A stretch of DNA of 64,000 nt from Candidatus Bathyarchaeota archaeon. GTDB taxonomy: Archaea; Thermoproteota; Bathyarchaeia; TCS64. Below are positions 6,539 through 61,927 of this stretch, one piece after another. Numbering within the stretch: the stretch's first letter is position 1; every line of letters begins with the position of its first letter. The notes below the pieces were generated by a model, which was not told the origin of the DNA, did not search any database, and saw only the letters and a program-made list of their open reading frames with translations. The DNA lies in contig CAVYVF010000023.1 of the NCBI GenBank assembly GCA_963771885.1, positions 448,001 to 512,000 on the forward strand. The letters run 5' to 3'. A program made the position numbers and the translations under genes.

Positions 6539-7614
6539 ATGAGTCAGGGCAGGAGGAGTGCCATCAGGGTCAGGAGGGTGGACAAGCCCCCTTATACTAT
6601 CGATCCGGAGAAGGTCAGGAGGTACGACCAGAGGAACCTGATTTTCAACCGCGTTGGCAAGGACTCGAGTTGGGGCGGGTATATGAGGAGCGAGGAGGAG
6701 GTGGGGCTCCGCAACATAGCCAAAGGAAAGCCCGGCTACACCCGTGTCGACTACGCCCTCGCTGAGGCAGCTTGGACTGTCCACGAGTGCTTCCAGGAGG
6801 CGTGGAGCTGGGAGAGGATGGCGCGCCCGCTCGGTCCCAGTCTCATGGGGGATAAGTGGTATGGTAAAAAGTACCGCGTCAGGGATCCCGCTGAGATGGC
6901 GTCGAAGGTAAAGAAGGCTGCTAAGCTCTACGGCGCTAGCCTCGTCGGGGTGGCGGCGTATAACCCGCTTTGGATGCAGGTGAATAATAGGTTTGACCTA
7001 TCCCCTCTGGATATGCCCCAAGAGGTGAAGTGGGTCATCGTGGGCGCCATAGAGATGGATGAGTTAGGGATAGCCACGAGCCCCGAGTCACCCGCTGGTG
7101 CGGCGACCGGTACCGGTTACTCACGTATGGCATTTGTAGCTGCGACGCTTGCGGAGTTCATAAGAAATCTCGGCTATACGGCGGTACCCGCGGGGAACAA
7201 CGTGGGGCTCAGCGTGCCGATGGCGATAGATGCAGGGTTGGGGCAGCTTGGGCGCCACGGGCTCCTCATTACCCCCGAGTATGGGCCGAGAGTACGCCTC
7301 TTCAAGGTCTTCACGGACCTGCCACTCGTCACCTGACAAGCCCGATCGACTTCGGCGTAACCCAGTTCTGCAGGAGCTGCAAGCGCTGCGCCGAGGTATG
7401 CGAGGTCGACGCCATCAGCTTCAAGGACGACCCCGATTGGGAGCCGGCGACGAAGAGTAGCAGTCCCGGGGCGCTCAAGTGGTACATGGATGCGGAGAAG
7501 TGCTTCGAGTACTGGTGCGATAACGGGATGGACTGCAGCACCTGCATAAGCGTCTGCCCCTACACAAAGGGTAGGAGCGAGGCGCACGCCAAGGATTTCT
7601 GGGGCTCCCAGTAG
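6539..7614 (+). CDS. reductive dehalogenase-like cobalamin / 2x[4Fe-4S] protein; two single-base insertions near 7331 and 7341
   Basis: DYALAEAAW, YSRMAF..LAEFIRNLGY, GLGQLGRHGLLITPEYGPRVRL. After the indels the frame reads PDKPIDFGVTQFCRSCKRCAEVC...CFEYWCDNGMDCSTCISVCPY to TAG at 7612-7614. Confidence 0.8.
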
Positions 7615-7645
7615 CCTTATAGACCTCCCTTCTCTCTACCCTCTT

Positions 7646-7950
7646 GGTCGGTGAGCCGGTGGGCGGCTGCCGGGCCCGTGAGGGTCTGAGGAAACTCCAT
7701 CCACCGAGCAGGGCTGCGACGCTGAAAGGCGTGGCGCGAGAGCGTCGGCTCCGGACAGAAACGACACCTCCCCCGGCAAATGCCGTGAGCCCCGGTCAGG
7801 GGTGAGGACGCCGTGGGGCAGGGGTGAGACGGCCGACCCGCAGGGTGAAAGGGCGAATAGGCGCCGGGTCCCTCCTGCAGGGGGCGCGGGTAGCCCGTAT
7901 AGCTGAATGCTGCCTAGAACAGAAGGTGGGTTACGACCGGCACACCGACC
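7646..7950 (+). ncRNA. rnpB: archaeal RNase P RNA
   Basis: P1 pairing of GGTCGGTG.GCCGGT (from 7646) with ACCGGCACACCGACC (to 7950); GAGGAAACTCC at 7688; CAGAAACGA; 3' TAGAACAGAAGGTGGGTTAC; TTATA box about 25 bp upstream. Confidence 0.92.
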
Positions 7951-7980
7951 ACATCATACTGAATACCACTAAAACGTGTT
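7933..7980 (+). repeat. 48-bp direct repeat, copy 1 (rnpB 3' end plus trailer; attL-like)
   Basis: ACGACCGGCACACCGACCACATCATACTGAATACCACTAAAACGTGTT; 44/48 identical to 10779-10826. Confidence 0.9.
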
Positions 7981-8018
7981 TGGAGAATCAAGCGCGCGAC
8001 AACTTCACGAGTACGCTT

Positions 8019-8582
8019 CTACCCCTTGTTCGGAACTCGCCTCAGCCGCAAAGCAACGAGATAAAAAATGATTGGAGCCACAACCCAAACAAGCTGCGGT
8101 AAAAGCGTGATATCCGCATCGTTGAAACGGAAGATCACCGGGTTCCACCAATGTGGGACAAATACCCAGCCTGAGTTGCCGACCGCTAGGAGTTCCAAGA
8201 CCAGTTCCTGCAGTCCCCCCCAGATCAGTAACACGACTATTTCTGAAATGCGAAAATGGACGAAATGCGGTGGCCGACAGAGCTTCTTAACTAGGAAGTA
8301 GCCCGCGATGAACAGGCCACCATCCCAGAAACAATGCACTACATGGAGGAGTAAGAGGGGATATGGTATCGGCGTCTTAAGCACATACAAAGGAGTGGTA
8401 GAGAAATTCGGGCCGATGAAGTAGAATGGTATCTCCCAAAGTGAACCAATTATGCATCCAGCCCAATACAGCGTATAGCTGTAAGAGTCTATCTTACCCA
8501 TTTGGCGCAGAAACACTATTAGTAACGGTATGAAGAGGGCGATCGTAATATCAATCCAATAGAAAGTTTGGTCTGCCATCAT
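8019..8582 (-). CDS. hypothetical multi-pass membrane protein
   Basis: 187 aa, about 5 hydrophobic segments, Trp-rich, with a HCFWDGG motif; family not recognised. Confidence 0.7.
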   Translation of the reverse strand: MMADQTFYWIDITIALFIPLLIVFLRQMGKIDSYSYTLYWAGCIIGSLWEIPFYFIGPNFSTTPLYVLKTPIPYPLLLLHVVHCFWDGGLFIAGYFLVKKLCRPPHFVHFRISEIVVLLIWGGLQELVLELLAVGNSGWVFVPHWWNPVIFRFNDADITLLPQLVWVVAPIIFYLVALRLRRVPNKG

Positions 8583-8900
8583 TGACCAATGTTCATATGC
8601 GGATTAAAGTCTGTCATGTTGAACCCGCGCGCGCGTCGTCGACAAGTAGAACTATGATTGAAGAGCCAATCCAAGGTACAAGTTAACCTTCGAATGTGAT
8701 TCATCTGGCTTTATGAGCCTCCGCCTTTCCGTGGAGAGGTGTCTAGTGAATGGATGATTAACAATTATGCGTTATAGCGTGGATCTCGCTTTCCTTTCTT
8801 TCATAACACGTGCTTATATTAGCTCTGAGGGTCTTGCACGTATGCTCGGGTTCGGTTCATTAACTGCGCTTCCCTGAGTTGATTTAGAGTGTAGATAATT

Positions 8901-9032
8901 ATGAAGGATAAAACGGAGAAGAAGGGCCGCCGATTACCAACCGAATCGGAGAAACAGGACGACAAACTACGCGATGGGTTGAAGGCGGTTCGTGGGACAA
9001 AGAAGCATTCCCTATCACGGTCTAACTATTAA
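8901..9032 (+). CDS. possible small basic protein (43 aa)
   Basis: ATG at 8901 to TAA at 9032, MKDKTEKKGRRLPTESEKQDDKLRDGLKAVRGTKKHSLSRSNY; no recognised homology. Confidence 0.25.
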   Translation: MKDKTEKKGRRLPTESEKQDDKLRDGLKAVRGTKKHSLSRSNY

Positions 9033-9279
9033 CATGCACACGCCACTCCTATAGGATGAAGAAGACGTGCAGGTTGTAGGCCCGAAGAGTCCGCGATCCT
9101 CTACGACAACTACGCGAGTAACTATGCTAGATTGAGAACGGGTAAGGAGCGGATTTATCCTAGAATATTGCGTTCACCCAGCGTGCTGCGTCGACTCTGA
9201 TCTGCCCCTGGCCTTCACCGTCGCGCCCCTGAAGCATCCCTCAGGTCTATAAGTCTCCGCGAAAAGGATTACTGATTAA

Positions 9280-10611
9280 ATGCGTTCAGCTTGGATTACT
9301 ACCTTGAAGGCATTATGCTGTGCAGAGTTAAACGGTATGAGCGAAGAAGCCGCTATTAGAAAGACCTGCAAGCAGATCGGAATTAAGGACCATATAAATA
9401 TACAAAAAGCTAGCGAATTATTATACGCTGTATCGAAGAGGAGAAATGCACTCGATTATCGTATCAACCAAGCACTATTACCAGGCGACGTCGAAGCACT
9501 TGATGTCGGTGTAAGAAGCTTCCTCCGTATCTACACATACCTAGTACACTATGGTGGCTGTTCTCTCGCGGAGGCCCACAAATTTGTCGAGCACTCAAGA
9601 GAGATCCTTGGTAAAAAGACTCTCAGAGCCGTTGAGGAAGTGATTGACATAATTCCCCATCAGAAGATCCCGTGGGAGAATCTCAGTAGAGTTGAGGCGC
9701 TGGCATTTGAGAATTTTTTACCCCCTTGGTATGTCGAGTACATCAGCGACAACTTCGAGAAGGAGTTAGCGGCTGATCTCATGTCCCCCGTTGAGATCCC
9801 CAAGTATATTCGGATCAACTCTCTTCGTGGGGGTGAGTCAGTGATCCCCAAGTTAAGTGCTGATGGCTACCAACTCGAAGCTGTACCTGGAGTCCCCTAC
9901 GCTTACAAGGTTCAAGGATACTCAGTAGGGTTGACCGACACCGCCTCATACCGAGAAGGTGATTTCATGATGCAGGACAAGGCGAGTATGCTTGTCAGCG
10001 AGGTGGCGGCGCCGATGGCGGGAAATGTTGTGCTGGATGTATGTGCTGCGCCAGGGGCGAAGACAAGTCACCTCGCTCAGATCATGGGTAACCGAGGGAG
10101 AATAGTATCGGTAGATATCAACGTAGCCAGATTGGCGTCCTGGAAAGGGATAATGGAGAGACTTGGTGTTTCGATCGGAGAGGCAGTGATTGGTGACGCG
10201 TCTAAAGCTGATGGGCTCCCTGATGTTATCGCCGACTTGGTTTTGCTGGATCCCCCCTGCTCGGGTACGGGCACCTTCAATAAAATTCCGTCCCTGAAAT
10301 GGAGGGTAACTCACTCTTCAATCCTCGATTTTGCATCTCTCCAGAGTAGACTCTTGGAGAATGTGGCGGCGCATGTGAGGAGCGGAGGGTGGCTTGTTTA
10401 CAGCACATGCAGTGTATCTGTGGAAGAGAATGAGTTTGTTGTCAAGGGTTTTCTTGAGGGGCACCCGGAATTCAAGATTGTGGAGGCAAGTCCGAGATTG
10501 GGTTCACCGGGGTTACTTGGGCTGGTAGAGGCTCAGAGGCTATTCCCTAAAAGGCATGAGTGTGAGGGTTTCTTCATAGCTAAACTACGGAACAGTCCGG
10601 CTTTTGATTAA
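9280..10611 (+). CDS. RsmB/NOP2/Sun-family RNA cytosine-5 methyltransferase with NusB-like N-terminus
   Basis: QDKAS, DVCAAPGAKT, LLDPPCSGTG, YSTCS, EENE, EGFFIAKL; both catalytic Cys present. Confidence 0.92.
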   Translation: MRSAWITTLKALCCAELNGMSEEAAIRKTCKQIGIKDHINIQKASELLYAVSKRRNALDYRINQALLPGDVEALDVGVRSFLRIYTYLVHYGGCSLAEAHKFVEHSREILGKKTLRAVEEVIDIIPHQKIPWENLSRVEALAFENFLPPWYVEYISDNFEKELAADLMSPVEIPKYIRINSLRGGESVIPKLSADGYQLEAVPGVPYAYKVQGYSVGLTDTASYREGDFMMQDKASMLVSEVAAPMAGNVVLDVCAAPGAKTSHLAQIMGNRGRIVSVDINVARLASWKGIMERLGVSIGEAVIGDASKADGLPDVIADLVLLDPPCSGTGTFNKIPSLKWRVTHSSILDFASLQSRLLENVAAHVRSGGWLVYSTCSVSVEENEFVVKGFLEGHPEFKIVEASPRLGSPGLLGLVEAQRLFPKRHECEGFFIAKLRNSPAFD

Positions 10612-10778
10612 TTTGCGCACACGTTGCCTTGTCCCTAAATTCAGAACAAGCTTATTTTGACAGTTAGAGTCTCGTCATCCCATGGCGCCAACCAGAGGAG
10701 GTCCGATCTATAAGACAGGACGAACACGAGACCCTTGAGACACACGCGCGCCAAGTAACCTACCTCTAGAAGTCGGTA

Positions 10779-10826
10779 ACGACCGGCACACCGACCACCT
10801 CAGACTGAAAGCCACTAAAACGTGTT
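10779..10826 (+). repeat. 48-bp direct repeat, copy 2 (displaced rnpB 3' end; attR-like)
   Basis: ACGACCGGCACACCGACCACCTCAGACTGAAAGCCACTAAAACGTGTT; preceded by AGAAGTCGGTA, which resembles AGAAGGTGGGTT before copy 1. Confidence 0.9.
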
Positions 10827-10873
10827 CGATGGTCTTTTCTGAAAGCTTCTTTATGAAGAACTAAAGTAATCTA

Positions 10874-11623
10874 GTGATCCAGAGCTTGAGTCCTCAGGAT
10901 AAAATATCTGTAATCATGGCCATCCATAACGAGGAGACATATCTCCCAAAATCTCTAACTTGTTTGAAAAATGAGGACATAAAACTAATTGTTATATTAG
11001 ATCGTTGCACCGATAATTCAAAAAAAATTGTTGAAAACCTTTTTCCAGAAGCAATAATCGTGGAAAAAAAAGCAACAAGGTGGGTGAATAGCTACGCTGA
11101 GAATCTTCAAATTGGGTATGAAAAAACCACGGGAAAATACGTAGGGATACTCGACGCTGATATTTGTTGTCCTCCTGACACATTCGCATGTTTACAAAAG
11201 GAGTTGAACTTGCAGACAGCTTCGATTAGTGCAAATATTGTAACGGATAAGACAGCGTCTTTTATGAATCATCTTTATTATTTTTGGGAGAAAACCCACG
11301 ATTGGGGAGTTAAGGAAAGAGAACCTAGAGGCGCTATTCGAGTTATTCTAAGAGAGGCGTTAAATAATGTTGGGGGTTTTAAAGACACTCCTACTCCTGA
11401 TACCCAACTTGATTTAGATCTTAGAAAAGCCGGGTACATGTCAAATTTATCAAGAGATGTAGTATGTCTACACCTTAGGAAATTCTCCTTTAAAAAATCT
11501 ATTCAAACGCAAATTATCTCTGGTAGAACGAGGAGAAAGATGAAGATGCCTTTAATTAAGGTACTCGGCCACTCAATAGTCCGACTTAGACCTTTTGTTT
11601 TTTATGGATATTTAATTTCATAA
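10874..11623 (+). CDS. glycosyltransferase family 2 (AT-rich)
   Basis: ISVIMAIHNEE, DRCTDNS, DAD motif, VGGF. Confidence 0.85.
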   Translation: MIQSLSPQDKISVIMAIHNEETYLPKSLTCLKNEDIKLIVILDRCTDNSKKIVENLFPEAIIVEKKATRWVNSYAENLQIGYEKTTGKYVGILDADICCPPDTFACLQKELNLQTASISANIVTDKTASFMNHLYYFWEKTHDWGVKEREPRGAIRVILREALNNVGGFKDTPTPDTQLDLDLRKAGYMSNLSRDVVCLHLRKFSFKKSIQTQIISGRTRRKMKMPLIKVLGHSIVRLRPFVFYGYLIS

Positions 11624-11632
11624 TTGAGTTTT

Positions 11633-12790
11633 TTAGAATCGTTTTTTACTCTTCCCTTCCTTAATTTCTTCTAATGTTTTTTCCCACTTTAATGATGTTT
11701 CTTCTACAGAGAATTTTTTTACCCACAATCTACCTTGTTCAGATATTTGTTGATAGTATTTTTCGTCTGTAATTAATTGTTTTACATATTTTGCGAATTC
11801 ATTTGGGCCGTTTATTCTAAAGCCCGTTTCATTATGAATAACAGTTTCTTGTTGACCCCCGCCGTCAGCAACTATCGGAATACAACCTGCAGCTTGTGCT
11901 TCAATTGGGACAATACCAAAATGCTCCTCAGGGTTATAAGATAACAAAAATTTTGAATAGACTAACGTATCAATTATTTCATCGTAGGTAACATTCGTTT
12001 TTAACTCAATTGGATAAGACTTATTTTTTAATTCGTCAACTTTTTTAGTTATTTTTTCTGCATATAAAATACTCTCCGTTTTTTTAGACACTCCGCCTAC
12101 AATTTTTAAACTGCATTTATAATCGTCATATAAATCAAGATAAGCGTCGATAACATGATCAATTCCTTTAAAAGCATCTATTCTTCCAACATAGCATAAC
12201 TGGTTAATTTTTTCTTTTTTAATATTAAATTTGTTTATATCGACTGTTGGATATATCATTTTAAACGAAGATAAATTTACGTAATTACCCCATAATATTT
12301 TACAAATTTTCTCTGTATAATGAGAATTACATATAATGCAATCTAATCTAGATAATTGTTTATAATGCTGATACCAGTATGGTACTCTGTAAACCAGATA
12401 AGGTAAAGTATTTTTTCTTATTTTTAGCTCTGTCGGAAAATGACAATAATGAATTTTAATTATGTTATTAGGAACAGAATAAAAAACTCCTGGTTCAAGA
12501 TCAGCGGAAATTATTACATTAGGGTTAAACTCTTTAATGCATTTATTAATTGATGAACCAGAAGTCAGTAATGTTTTCCAAACAGTACCTTTAATATGAT
12601 TCCCAACCCATGAGGGTAAAAAAATATTTTCGATTCCATGAAATCCTTCAAAACTCTGTTCCTCTGGCCTTTCCCATGAACATAATGCAATTTTATGGTC
12701 AAATTTACTTAGCATCTGACATAGATCGGAAGCAAATTTATTTCCACCGCCTAGAATATTTGGATTTGTCACGGCAATAGCAATTTTCAT
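11633..12790 (-). CDS. glycosyltransferase family 4 (AT-rich)
   Basis: CNSHYT, YVGRIDAFKG, EHFGIVPIEAQAAG, GGQQETV. Confidence 0.9.
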   Translation of the reverse strand: MKIAIAVTNPNILGGGNKFASDLCQMLSKFDHKIALCSWERPEEQSFEGFHGIENIFLPSWVGNHIKGTVWKTLLTSGSSINKCIKEFNPNVIISADLEPGVFYSVPNNIIKIHYCHFPTELKIRKNTLPYLVYRVPYWYQHYKQLSRLDCIICNSHYTEKICKILWGNYVNLSSFKMIYPTVDINKFNIKKEKINQLCYVGRIDAFKGIDHVIDAYLDLYDDYKCSLKIVGGVSKKTESILYAEKITKKVDELKNKSYPIELKTNVTYDEIIDTLVYSKFLLSYNPEEHFGIVPIEAQAAGCIPIVADGGGQQETVIHNETGFRINGPNEFAKYVKQLITDEKYYQQISEQGRLWVKKFSVEETSLKWEKTLEEIKEGKSKKRF

Positions 12791-12952
12791 TATAATTAAT
12801 TCATACTAAGATCCATTTAAAGATAATATTGAATCATGTAAAGTTAGTAATTCAAATCACCTGTGTATAGTGGCCTATCTTTTATCTCTGTAAATAGTCC
12901 CTATTTTTATAATTTACATGAATTAACCTAAAACGCGTACATTAAAAGGAAT

Positions 12953-14293
12953 TTACCGTTTACGTAACTCGTCGAGGGAGACTATCGGGCAATCATTATA
13001 CTTGAAGCCCCCCGGAGGCATCCATCCCCCGAAGCGCTTCATCGCCTCTCCCAACTGCTTACCCGCAGGGTTCTCGGGCTTAAGCAGGGGATGGGTGAAG
13101 GCTGCCTCATCCCCTGATACCTCCGGGATGACCAGCTCATAGTCCTTAGAGCCCGCGCCGAGCAGGCTGCACGCGTTCGGGCTAATCCACTGACTCATCC
13201 CGTTTATCACAGTGAACTTTTCCTGGCCGGGCTCCATAACGTGCTTCTCTTCCGCGACGGAGCCGTGGATGCCATGTGCCTGAACAGACATATCGAGGGC
13301 CGCCACGTCGATAGCGACCATGTCTCGGGAAGCGAAGACGCCGAGGTTCGGCAGCACCGCCCTATCGGTGCCGGGGACGCAGTCACAGGCGGGGGTCAGA
13401 TCGAGGGCGTAGGTTAGGTATCCGATGCGCTCCTTACCGATGTGGCGCACGTAGCCCGCAGCGGCGTCTGCCATCGCAACGAGGAACCAGTTACTCCAGT
13501 CATCATACTTCTCCCTACCCCAGAGCCCACACCTGAAGAGCGGCCTCTGATGGCCGAAGCACCCTATGCACTTGGAGCCATCATAGGTCGCCCCGTCCTT
13601 CCCGATCTTGAGCGCGCCGGCTGGGCAGAGGTTATTGCAGACCACGTGGTTGGGGCACTCTTCCCCCTTGCACTTCTTGCCGTCGAAGCTCCAGCCGTTC
13701 CAGCCCACCTTCTGGTGGGTGCAGAGGTGCACGTTGAACTTTCCCCTCTTCGAGCTGCAGCCTATGGCGACGTTCTTTATGCTGCCCCCGTAGACGCCGT
13801 TGCCGTGCCCCTTGAAGTGGCTGACAACAATCACCGAGTCCGCGTCGGCGATCCCCCTCGCCAGGTACCCCTCCTTGAGCAGGAGACCATCGGGCAGGTC
13901 GACCCTGACGTCGTCCGTCCCGTACATGCCGTCGCTTATGATGATGGGGCACCCCATCGTCTCCGCCGTGAAGCCGTTGCGCGCTGCGTTCTCGAGGTAA
14001 AAGGACGCCGTGCAGCGGGCTCCATAGAAGTAGTAGGGCGCCGTCGTCGTGTCGGTCACGAAGGGCCTGCCCCCGAGCTCCTTCACCTTGTCGACTATCA
14101 CCCTGATAAGTATTGGGCGAAGGTATCCCGTGTTGAACCACTCACCCATGTGGCACTTTATAGCGACTGAGTCGCCGGGCTTGAAGCAGTCACCGAGGCC
14201 CGCGTGGTCAAACAGCTGCATCGCCTTCGCGGGTATGCTGGAGGACAGCGCCTTGTAGCGGTCATCCATGAAGTAGACTTTGCTCTTCATCAT
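12953..14293 (-). CDS. DUF362-family Fe-S protein
   Basis: VAIKCHMGE, GGRPFVTDT, SHFKGH...GGSIKNVAIGC, internal ferredoxin Cys motifs, CDC, ASRDMVAID. Confidence 0.85.
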   Translation of the reverse strand: MMKSKVYFMDDRYKALSSSIPAKAMQLFDHAGLGDCFKPGDSVAIKCHMGEWFNTGYLRPILIRVIVDKVKELGGRPFVTDTTTAPYYFYGARCTASFYLENAARNGFTAETMGCPIIISDGMYGTDDVRVDLPDGLLLKEGYLARGIADADSVIVVSHFKGHGNGVYGGSIKNVAIGCSSKRGKFNVHLCTHQKVGWNGWSFDGKKCKGEECPNHVVCNNLCPAGALKIGKDGATYDGSKCIGCFGHQRPLFRCGLWGREKYDDWSNWFLVAMADAAAGYVRHIGKERIGYLTYALDLTPACDCVPGTDRAVLPNLGVFASRDMVAIDVAALDMSVQAHGIHGSVAEEKHVMEPGQEKFTVINGMSQWISPNACSLLGAGSKDYELVIPEVSGDEAAFTHPLLKPENPAGKQLGEAMKRFGGWMPPGGFKYNDCPIVSLDELRKR

Positions 14294-55153: not shown

Positions 55154-55229
55154 GGCCCGGTAGCTCAGCGGTCAGAGCGGCAGCCTCGTAAGTTGTAGGT
55201 CGCGGGTCCGAATCCCGCTCGGGCCTCCA
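55154..55229 (+). tRNA. tRNA-Thr(CGT) with encoded CCA
   Basis: Acceptor GGCCCGG/TCGGGCC-T-CCA; anticodon CGT at 55187-55189; T arm GCGGG-TCCGAAT-CCCGC. Confidence 0.9.
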
Positions 55230-56637: not shown

Positions 56638-57816
56638 ATGGGCGTCGACTTGGGCATCGAACCGGTCTGGCAGTTCATAGCCCGCGCATCATCCGCGAGG
56701 GACAAGGGCGACTACCCGGAGGCGGAGTTCTACGCGAGAAAGGCAGTCTTCTCCGACCAGAGCCTCGGCGCTGCATACGTCCTCCTCTGCGAGATACTCG
56801 AAAAGGAGGGGAAGAAGGACGAGGCAGAGAGGTGCCTAAGAGCGGGCCTTGATTAATGCCCCGGAGATGTCGCACTCACAAGCATGGGGGCGCAGTTCCT
56901 CATTAGGAACGGCCGCCTCGACGACGCCGAGAGGTTCCTCCGCAACGCGATAGCAGCCGAGGCGGACGTCGCCGGCTACAGGCTCCTCCTCTCCGTCGTC
57001 CTCCAGCAGAAGGGGGACATCGAGCACGCAGAGGAAGCAGTCCGTAGGGCAATACTCCTCGACGATACGAGTGGGGACGCCTACTCGATGTACGGTGTCA
57101 TACTCTGGAAGAAGGGACTGCACGAGCAGGCTATGAAGTACGTTGCCCACGCCCTCGAGCTCAAGCCGGAGGACGCGACAATCCACCTAAACCTCGCCAT
57201 AATCATGGAGGGCGCCGGCAAGTTCGCCGACTCCGAGGGGCATTACAAGAAGGCGCTAGAGCTCCACCCCAACTGGCCCGAGGTACAGGCACGCTACGAC
57301 AAACTCAGGTACAGGCTCAACGACCCCGCGGAGACGCTCAAGAAGGCAGCCGCCATCAAGGCAACGAGCCCAGAGGAGGCCGAGGCCCTCTATAAGAAGG
57401 CGCTTGAGATGCGCGCTGACTCCCCCGATGCCCACAACGAATACGGCGTCTTCCTCTGGGAGAGGAAAAGGCTCCCAGAGTCGGAGGAGCACCTCAAGAA
57501 GGCGGCGGATCTCAAGCCTAGCTGGGTAACGCCCCAGTACAACACTGCCCTCAACCTCATCAACCAGGGCAGGCTCTCCGACGCCGAGGTATACCTGAAG
57601 CGGACACTCGGCCTCTACCCCACCTTCACCGACGGACACCTCGTCTACGCCAACACCCTCTTCAAGCTCCGCCGCCTCCCCGAGGCCGAGGAGCACTACA
57701 AGAAGGCGATCGAGCTAAAGCCCGACAACAAGAAGGCGCACGAGAACTACGCCCAGCTATTAAAGGCGCTGGGAAGGCTCCCCGAGTCCGAGGATCAGGC
57801 GAAACTCGCTCAGTAG
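56638..57816 (+). CDS. TPR-repeat protein interrupted by one in-frame TAA at 56854-56856
   Basis: ORFs 56638-56856 and 56884-57816 share a frame; repeated A..Y.KAL.L.P TPR units on both sides. Confidence 0.75.
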
Positions 57817-61849: not shown

Positions 61850-61927
61850 GCCCTGGTAGCTCAGCCTGGCCAGAGCGGCAGCCTTGTAAGCTGTAGGTCG
61901 CGGGTCCGAATCCCGCCCGGGGCTCCA
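61850..61927 (+). tRNA. tRNA-Thr(TGT) with encoded CCA
   Basis: Acceptor GCCCTGG/CCGGGGC-T-CCA; anticodon TGT at 61885-61887; T arm GCGGG-TCCGAAT-CCCGC. Confidence 0.92.

Follow-up and report, generated by a model that had tools for sequence, protein, structure and literature searches.

The 3' end of the RNase P RNA gene as a probable target of an integrative element family in Bathyarchaeia

The DNA considered here is a stretch of 64,000 nucleotides (the window) from contig CAVYVF010000023.1 of Candidatus Bathyarchaeota archaeon. It raises a simple question. Why should the 3' end of the RNase P RNA gene (rnpB), a single-copy, essential and nearly universal gene, recur some 2.8 kb downstream of the gene itself? 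We conclude that the rnpB 3' end is very probably the target of a family of integrative elements in Bathyarchaeia and that the copy in the window is a dead remnant. In this abundant group of sediment archaea rnpB appears to be a main gate for accessory DNA. Integration at the 3' ends of tRNA and transfer-messenger RNA (tmRNA) genes is already known; the RNase P RNA gene as a target would, on sequence evidence, be new.

The window belongs to a 2.46-Mb metagenome-assembled genome, 92% complete and with 6.7% contamination, which we call G000. Relative genomes are numbered in the same way, individual loci carry the prefix L, and X1 and X6 are public sequencing runs, which were compared as contigs. 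A first-pass annotation of this DNA had reported a 48-bp repeat, and the repeat holds as described. Positions 7933-7980 and 10779-10826 are identical at 44 of 48 positions, the opening 20 nt being without difference (whole-genome BLAST E = 1.6e-14). Mismatches number 0/20 in this core and 4/28 in the remainder, which we treat below as the stub of an integrase gene. Occurrence at many unrelated loci would have counted against an integration site; the 48-mer has no further match on either strand of the assembly with up to 14 mismatches allowed. A third, shorter copy of the rnpB end (31/31 nt) lies at C23:140669-140699, 315 kb away on the same contig. Folding pairs helix P1 fully from about 7645 to about 7951, and the core is its 3' strand.

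The same duplication is frequent amongst relatives. A 21-nt pattern for the rnpB end was found in 37 of 71 genomes of the family, 14 of the 37 holding two to five copies, and the reversed pattern used as a control gave two single matches. The extra copies are mostly co-oriented with rnpB and downstream of it where the contig permits, with up to five in G046; a few (G076, G052 and one in G014) look like chance matches or a second strain. The window shows the corresponding arrangement, an intact target gene followed by a co-oriented displaced 3' fragment. Eight elements with an intact integrase gene, 3.9-8.2 kb in size, are delimited by a repeat of 21-38 bp. This repeat starts 0-6 nt ahead of a GTTAC motif (14 nt in G077) and stops at or just past the end of the RNA, and the boundaries of the identity block are alike across four families. 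The search for duplicated rnpB ends with adjacent integrases that had been proposed on the basis of the window thus finds both, the integrases lying directly behind rnpB in four families.

In G009, G014 and G077, matches to PF00589 begin where rnpB ends. A profile built from these three proteins and run over 401 genomes of the class gave matches in 201. Amongst the next 20 best profile loci a complete rnpB lies directly upstream on the same strand in seven and a tRNA gene in six, and 80 metagenome loci contributed four more behind rnpB together with one duplicate of G009. For an integrase tree, 101 of 117 loci were used, leaving out 12 near-duplicates and four short matches. All 14 rnpB-adjacent rows of this tree, from families f1, f11, f27 and f29, group together in a single clade, which comprises 19 rows and has a support of 99 in the Shimodaira-Hasegawa-like approximate likelihood-ratio test (SH-aLRT). 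Of the five unlabelled rows of the clade, two follow a displaced rnpB core, contig ends truncate another two, and one is unexplained. The rnpB label requires a single change on the tree against about 13 in shuffles, and the 28 rows that lie on tRNA genes are all outside the clade. No SSV1, pTN3 or pT26-2 integrase references are amongst the rows.

Clade members score above the PF00589 cut-off and are thereby assigned to the tyrosine recombinases. Residues R139, K164, Y232/R235, H258 and Y267 are invariant in the three clade sequences aligned; we take them to be the catalytic R, K, (H/Y)xxR, H and Y. The same number of members (three of three) was scanned for PF16795 (Phage_integr_3), with no match at E up to 0.001. 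The nearest solved structures are XerA-like, unsplit enzymes. Scores for the NCBIfam XerA equivalog, 89 and 95 bits, stand far below its cut-off of 220, which does not place the clade with the chromosomal XerA/dif system. Viral contigs yielded no relative of the clade profile.

Other integrase loci deserve mention in their own right. Related integrases at L131 and L135 lie behind the apparent 3' end of a protein gene, presumably one for a zinc-ribbon transcription factor. Those at L125-L127, which form the sister group of the rnpB clade, lie behind a conserved motif. Two loci outside the tree, L269 (G223) and L264 (G219), lie within 1.5 kb of a match to all or part of rnpB.

Is the strand of helix P1 that now works in rnpB the one that was there originally? 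If the copies were passive duplicates, the displaced one would be expected to pair no better than the working strand. At five of 14 loci (G185, G396, G301, L151 and G046) the rnpB strand has a wobble or a mismatch where a displaced copy forms Watson-Crick pairs with the host 5' strand. This pattern fits the replacement of the host strand by one supplied by the element. The tally also holds evidence to the contrary: five of the 14 loci, G000 among them, show no pairing difference between copies, and the displaced or older copy is worse somewhere in five (G077, G048, G013, G045 and one position in G301, which is counted on both sides). The case of G046 is itself weak, since its wobble is a common G-U polymorphism.

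The start of the integrase gene is a further point of interest. Of 16 clade members examined, all have a frame that stays open between the attachment (att) core and the first conserved helix, which are 14-28 codons apart in those where the motif could be placed; in 15 of the 16 this stretch holds no ATG, GTG or TTG. In four of eight loci (G009, G185, G363 and L151) a frame that opens with ATG, 9-54 codons long, precedes the first displaced copy and is in register with intC, the integrase gene's C-terminal part. An open frame that mostly lacks a start of its own, together with these in-register leaders, suggests that attP, the attachment site of the element, lies within the integrase gene. We consider it likely that integration splits the gene, and it is plausible from the sequences that the clade is an independent second origin of self-splitting integrases. 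As a separate observation, the T and A homopolymer runs just past attL in L062 (G014:C172) differ by one base from those in G009, which shifts the frame through the core.

We propose the following model. The attachment site attB would be the 3' strand of helix P1, and its users would be integrative elements of about 4-8 kb that carry integrases of one clade. Their attP would repeat 21-38 bp of the rnpB end and be located within the integrase gene, close to the start of that gene. Recombination, with a crossover probably in the opening 12 nt or so of the core, would rebuild rnpB with the element strand and displace the host strand downstream. A long catalytic intC devoid of a start codon would then stand behind rnpB and a short start-bearing N-terminal part, intN, before attR. 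Further insertions at the site would give tandem arrays, which would decay in time. The recombination itself, the role of intN and the order of events are steps that we infer. The fullest version of the account holds that the clade switched from tRNA genes to rnpB, that suicidal integrases arose a second time in a XerA-like lineage, that P1 strand swaps sometimes leave mismatches and that tandem insertion rebuilds working integrase genes; taken as a whole, we regard it as evenly balanced between right and wrong.

How far does the insertion in the window extend? In G017 rnpB meets a DUF362 gene after about 16 nt, with flanks that are 87% and 91% identical to those of G000. Given this near-empty allele, the kind of empty site that had been called for, the G000 insertion, some 5 kb of DNA, runs from about 7952 to 12943 in two modules split by copy 2 of the core. 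The bounds of the repeat within the originally claimed span of 7933..10826 stand, but the island does not end there and continues for about 2.1 kb past copy 2. In the contigs of four public runs the matches stop or diverge at 7952, and 8005-8727 is nearly without coverage. A contig of X1, an independent run, crosses the copy 2 junction, skipping the stub at 10800-10831.

Two details of the first-pass annotation have to be revised. The 30 nt after each core, read at the time as host trailer, align with intact integrase starts (17/24 nt identity with the intC starts of L149 and L150, a level attained at only five plus-strand positions of G000), and are therefore element DNA, the broken start of intC. 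The arm before copy 2, of the GTAACC...CTAGA type, had been taken for a decayed P4 strand. It is present in nine of the 68 motif matches listed (G000, G008, G012, G014, G007, G177 and L151) and stands ahead of displaced cores in a further six genomes or contigs, a full integrase coming after it in G177. It also occurs in families whose rnpB differs in that region, and so is better read as element DNA. Its inverted repeat was considered as the recombination core and rejected, as the spacer is not common to rnpB. A reading of the repeat as an integron attC was also rejected, on length and on a core that does not fit the consensus GTTRRRY.

The statement that the islet holds no integrase was borne out; of the two readings offered with it, a remnant or an element mobilized in trans, the remnant is the one supported. 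In G000 there is no match to PF00589, to the integrases of four relatives or to the rnpB-clade profile, the assembly being 92% complete; only stubs stand at the att ends in the window, whereas relatives have an integrase gene there. The window would then hold a decayed two-module array (7952-10778 and 10799-12943), each module opening with an intC stub. Behind rnpB come core, stub and cargo, then the arm, and then a second series of core, stub and cargo, whose right end would have been lost.

The proposal that an element family targets rnpB and restores P1 thus draws on the integrase clade, the complete 4-8 kb elements, the near-empty allele and the P1 pairing. Several observations pull the other way. 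The genome with the window lacks an integrase, and contigs of the four runs contain neither an excised circle nor a joint from 10826 to 7933. The G017 allele is not pristine, the 10 nt after its core resembling an intC start, and may itself be a deletion scar. Two other integrase types adjoin copies in single genomes, G002 and G008; homologs of these types fetched from other genomes have no rnpB copy or tRNA within 1.5 kb. The tree comes from a quick search with SH-aLRT support and no bootstrap. Copies remote from rnpB (G000 C23:140669, G047 and G012) would also suit a different origin, namely passive duplication or homologous or insertion sequence (IS)-driven rearrangement at a variable locus where integrases merely gather nearby, as would the IS end and the GCGCGC-bounded breakpoints in the islet. 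We think such an origin very improbable. The integrases abut the end of the RNA in frame and are monophyletic by target, which already largely refutes it; the identity block begins and ends alike in four families, and a decaying duplicate should not out-pair the working strand. Misassembly is less credible still. The source is a metagenome-assembled genome with some contamination, and no single contig of the four runs spans the stretch; nevertheless the two copies differ at 4/48 positions, an independent contig bridges copy 2 and a like architecture is seen in many genomes.

Two further alternatives leave the target as it is. A classical unsplit integrase could use rnpB, its start lying downstream of the core (non-canonical or internal) and the short upstream open reading frames (ORFs) being unrelated. 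The intN candidate is indeed out of register in three of the eight pairs (G396, G142 and G301) and trivial in another (G077), one of the 16 intC genes, that of G185, has its own ATG after the core, all three frames through the core are in use among clade members, and the closest solved relatives are unsplit. All this counts against a split gene, yet we hold the unsplit enzyme to be unlikely given that the frame is open from the core in 16/16 with a canonical start missing in 15 and that in-frame ATG-led leaders occur in 4/8. Mismatched pairs would, moreover, be expected in tandem arrays of different elements, as the frameshifted hybrids in the accessible part of PMC7253208 suggest. The other alternative concerns history alone: a single event may have made the 48-bp repeat, by way of an attP that carried 30 nt of an earlier stub or of a non-autonomous element mobilized in trans. 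Compared with intact intC starts, one and the same frameshifting deletion is present in both stubs, and the same arm stands before displaced cores in several integrase-less arrays. A helper integrase was not found in G000, however, and the mismatch counts (0/20 in the core, 4/28 in the stub) slightly favour two related elements, a weak point with an estimated p of about 0.05. We judge the single event somewhat less probable than two insertions.

Comparison with known systems, made on the accessible parts of the sources cited, shows both likenesses and differences. Islands at tRNA and tmRNA 3' ends have tyrosine integrases, and tandem arrays are standard (Islander; PMC4383910). They resemble the rnpB elements in the restored target, the displaced 3' fragment at the far end, the tandem arrays and the PF00589 integrase at att. 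They differ in that here the target is a ribozyme gene, at the P1 3' strand, and the identity block spans just 21-38 bp; no mention of RNase P was found in the accessible main text of PMC4383910. Suicidal integrases are described as carrying PF16795 and as having arisen once (PMC8371274). Those of the archaeal elements SSV1, pTN3 and pT26-2 (PMC8371274; PMC7253208) share with the rnpB clade different frames through att and, on the split-gene reading, an att inside the integrase gene and the separation of intC and intN on integration. The rnpB clade, in contrast, has PF00589 without PF16795, XerA-like enzymes as its closest solved structures, an intN that is a short leader and a target other than tRNA, and tandem arrays, common in rnpB elements, are essentially absent for the suicidal set of PMC7253208. 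If the split-gene reading is true, it contradicts the published single origin.

Other essential structural RNA genes are not exempt. Phage phiEf11 integrates in ffs, the gene for signal recognition particle RNA, again a non-tRNA target with a short core of 27 nt, although this is a bacterial phage and another RNA (PMC12540744). The cryptic integrated elements of Thaumarchaeota are small, integrase-only elements of related archaea with short att sites and tandem re-use, one of them with a split SSV1-like integrase; their 68 mapped sites are 39 tRNA, 15 intergenic and 14 protein-coding, and RNase P is absent from the text and four supplements as available (PMC6563490). Neither RNase P nor rnpB was found in the accessible main texts of PMC8371274, PMC7253208 and the Bathyarchaeia virus paper PMC10848311. 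In a survey of provirus borders 13.5% of RNA targets are unnamed noncoding RNAs, so rnpB could be hidden in its data; the accessible text and one supplement do not contain the term RNase P (PMC13626063). Three papers, as far as they are accessible, mention the gene in unrelated contexts (PMC2386152; PMC2864759; PMC13573593). The view that rnpB was not known as an archaeal target agrees with our literature search, in which no description of rnpB as an att site came up, subscription journals being outside its coverage. A search for the split-gene reading gave nothing either.

Programs that locate islands through tRNA and tmRNA genes will overlook this hotspot. For genetic tools yet to be built for Bathyarchaeia the rnpB end offers an attB that is short and conserved, and the system is a natural test of how integrases change target and of how far RNase P tolerates mismatches in P1.

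Table 1. Features of rnpB and the adjoining insertion, in window coordinates
Feature	Position	Strand	Basis or remark
RNase P RNA gene (rnpB), target gene	7645..7951	+	Rfam RF00373 (RNaseP_arch), 184.9 bits at 7651-7945; P1 fully Watson-Crick
att core copy 1 (attL), 3' strand of helix P1	7930..7952	+	same 21-38 bp block delimits complete elements in relatives
Broken 5' stub of integrase C-part (intC)	7952..7991	+	ends at GCGCGC run; stop codon and frameshift versus intact copies
187-aa predicted membrane protein, cargo	8019..8582	-	ORF
43-aa small ORF	8901..9032	+	multi-copy in G000 (C2) and genus relatives by DNA match
RsmB/NOL1-type RNA methyltransferase, cargo, 443 aa	9280..10611	+	PF01189, E 3e-51
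Truncated left end of DDE insertion sequence	10622..10743	+	multi-copy in genus; cut off at GCGCGC run
Element arm, GTAACC...CTAGA type	10755..10775	+	short inverted repeat with core start
att core copy 2, displaced original rnpB 3' end (attR of younger islet, left end of older module)	10776..10798	+	repeat match; X1 contig bridges junction, skips 10800-10831
Second broken intC stub	10799..10845	+	17/24 nt as in L149 and L150; frameshift as in stub 1
Family 2 glycosyltransferase, cargo of older module	10874..11623	+	PF00535; GC 0.37
Group 1 glycosyltransferase, cargo of older module	11633..12790	-	PF00534, PF13439; GC 0.30
Host backbone resumes (DUF362 gene and 3' flank)	12944..14293	-	91% identical DNA adjoins rnpB in G017

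The content of the insertion is mixed (Table 1). The GC fraction is 0.487 in 7952-10778 and 0.322 in 10827-12943 against 0.58 in both flanks, and of 362 segments of equal size along the contig, nine have a GC as low as that of 7952-10778. The interval between the copies had been described as low in GC and gene-sparse; the former is correct, but the 187-aa and 443-aa ORFs fill about two thirds of it. The 187-aa protein has no Pfam or NCBIfam match and its atlas look-alikes are unnamed clusters with a low recognition score; the 43-aa ORF has no Pfam match. Islet cargo genes are found at other loci in relatives. Homologs of the methyltransferase in G002, G013, G008 and G016 occupy a different locus, the G000 counterpart of which (C23 ~394.7-397.9 kb) is without the gene, and in G012 the pair of glycosyltransferase genes belongs to another cluster. 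An RNA was at first considered for the 120-bp repeat at 10622-10743 and then rejected: the repeat has no Rfam match and turned out to be an IS end, which in relatives precedes a transposase ORF (PF01609). Breakpoints in the islet at 7992, 8626-8635 and 10745 coincide with GCGCGC or CGCGCG runs, and at G000 C2:170901-171192 pieces that match window positions 8634-8748 and 10567-10700 are joined at a similar GC-run motif.

The remote copy of the rnpB end at C23:140669-140699 (L285) has a different type of arm and lies 41 nt behind tRNA-Leu(GAG). The same junction of tRNA-Leu and rnpB end is present in G003 and in runs X1 and X6. The tRNA-Leu(GAG) site is itself variable, an integrase coming after the tRNA in G016. 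Contig G036:C6 carries two divergent full-length RNase P RNA genes on the same strand, 5.4 kb apart (L008 and L029).

Upstream of rnpB in the window a reductive-dehalogenase-like gene (6539-7336) is frameshifted relative to the 358-aa version of relatives. At 7334-7345 the X1 and X6 contigs lack two single bases, and the frameshift may be an assembly error. Further away, two tRNA-Thr genes at 55154-55229 (CGT) and 61850-61927 (TGT), 6.7 kb apart, are 92% alike over 60 nt, and both are intact according to ARAGORN. Between them, at 57224-57726, is a repeat of five copies with a spacing of 102 nt, which we take to be, probably, TPR-like coding repeats.

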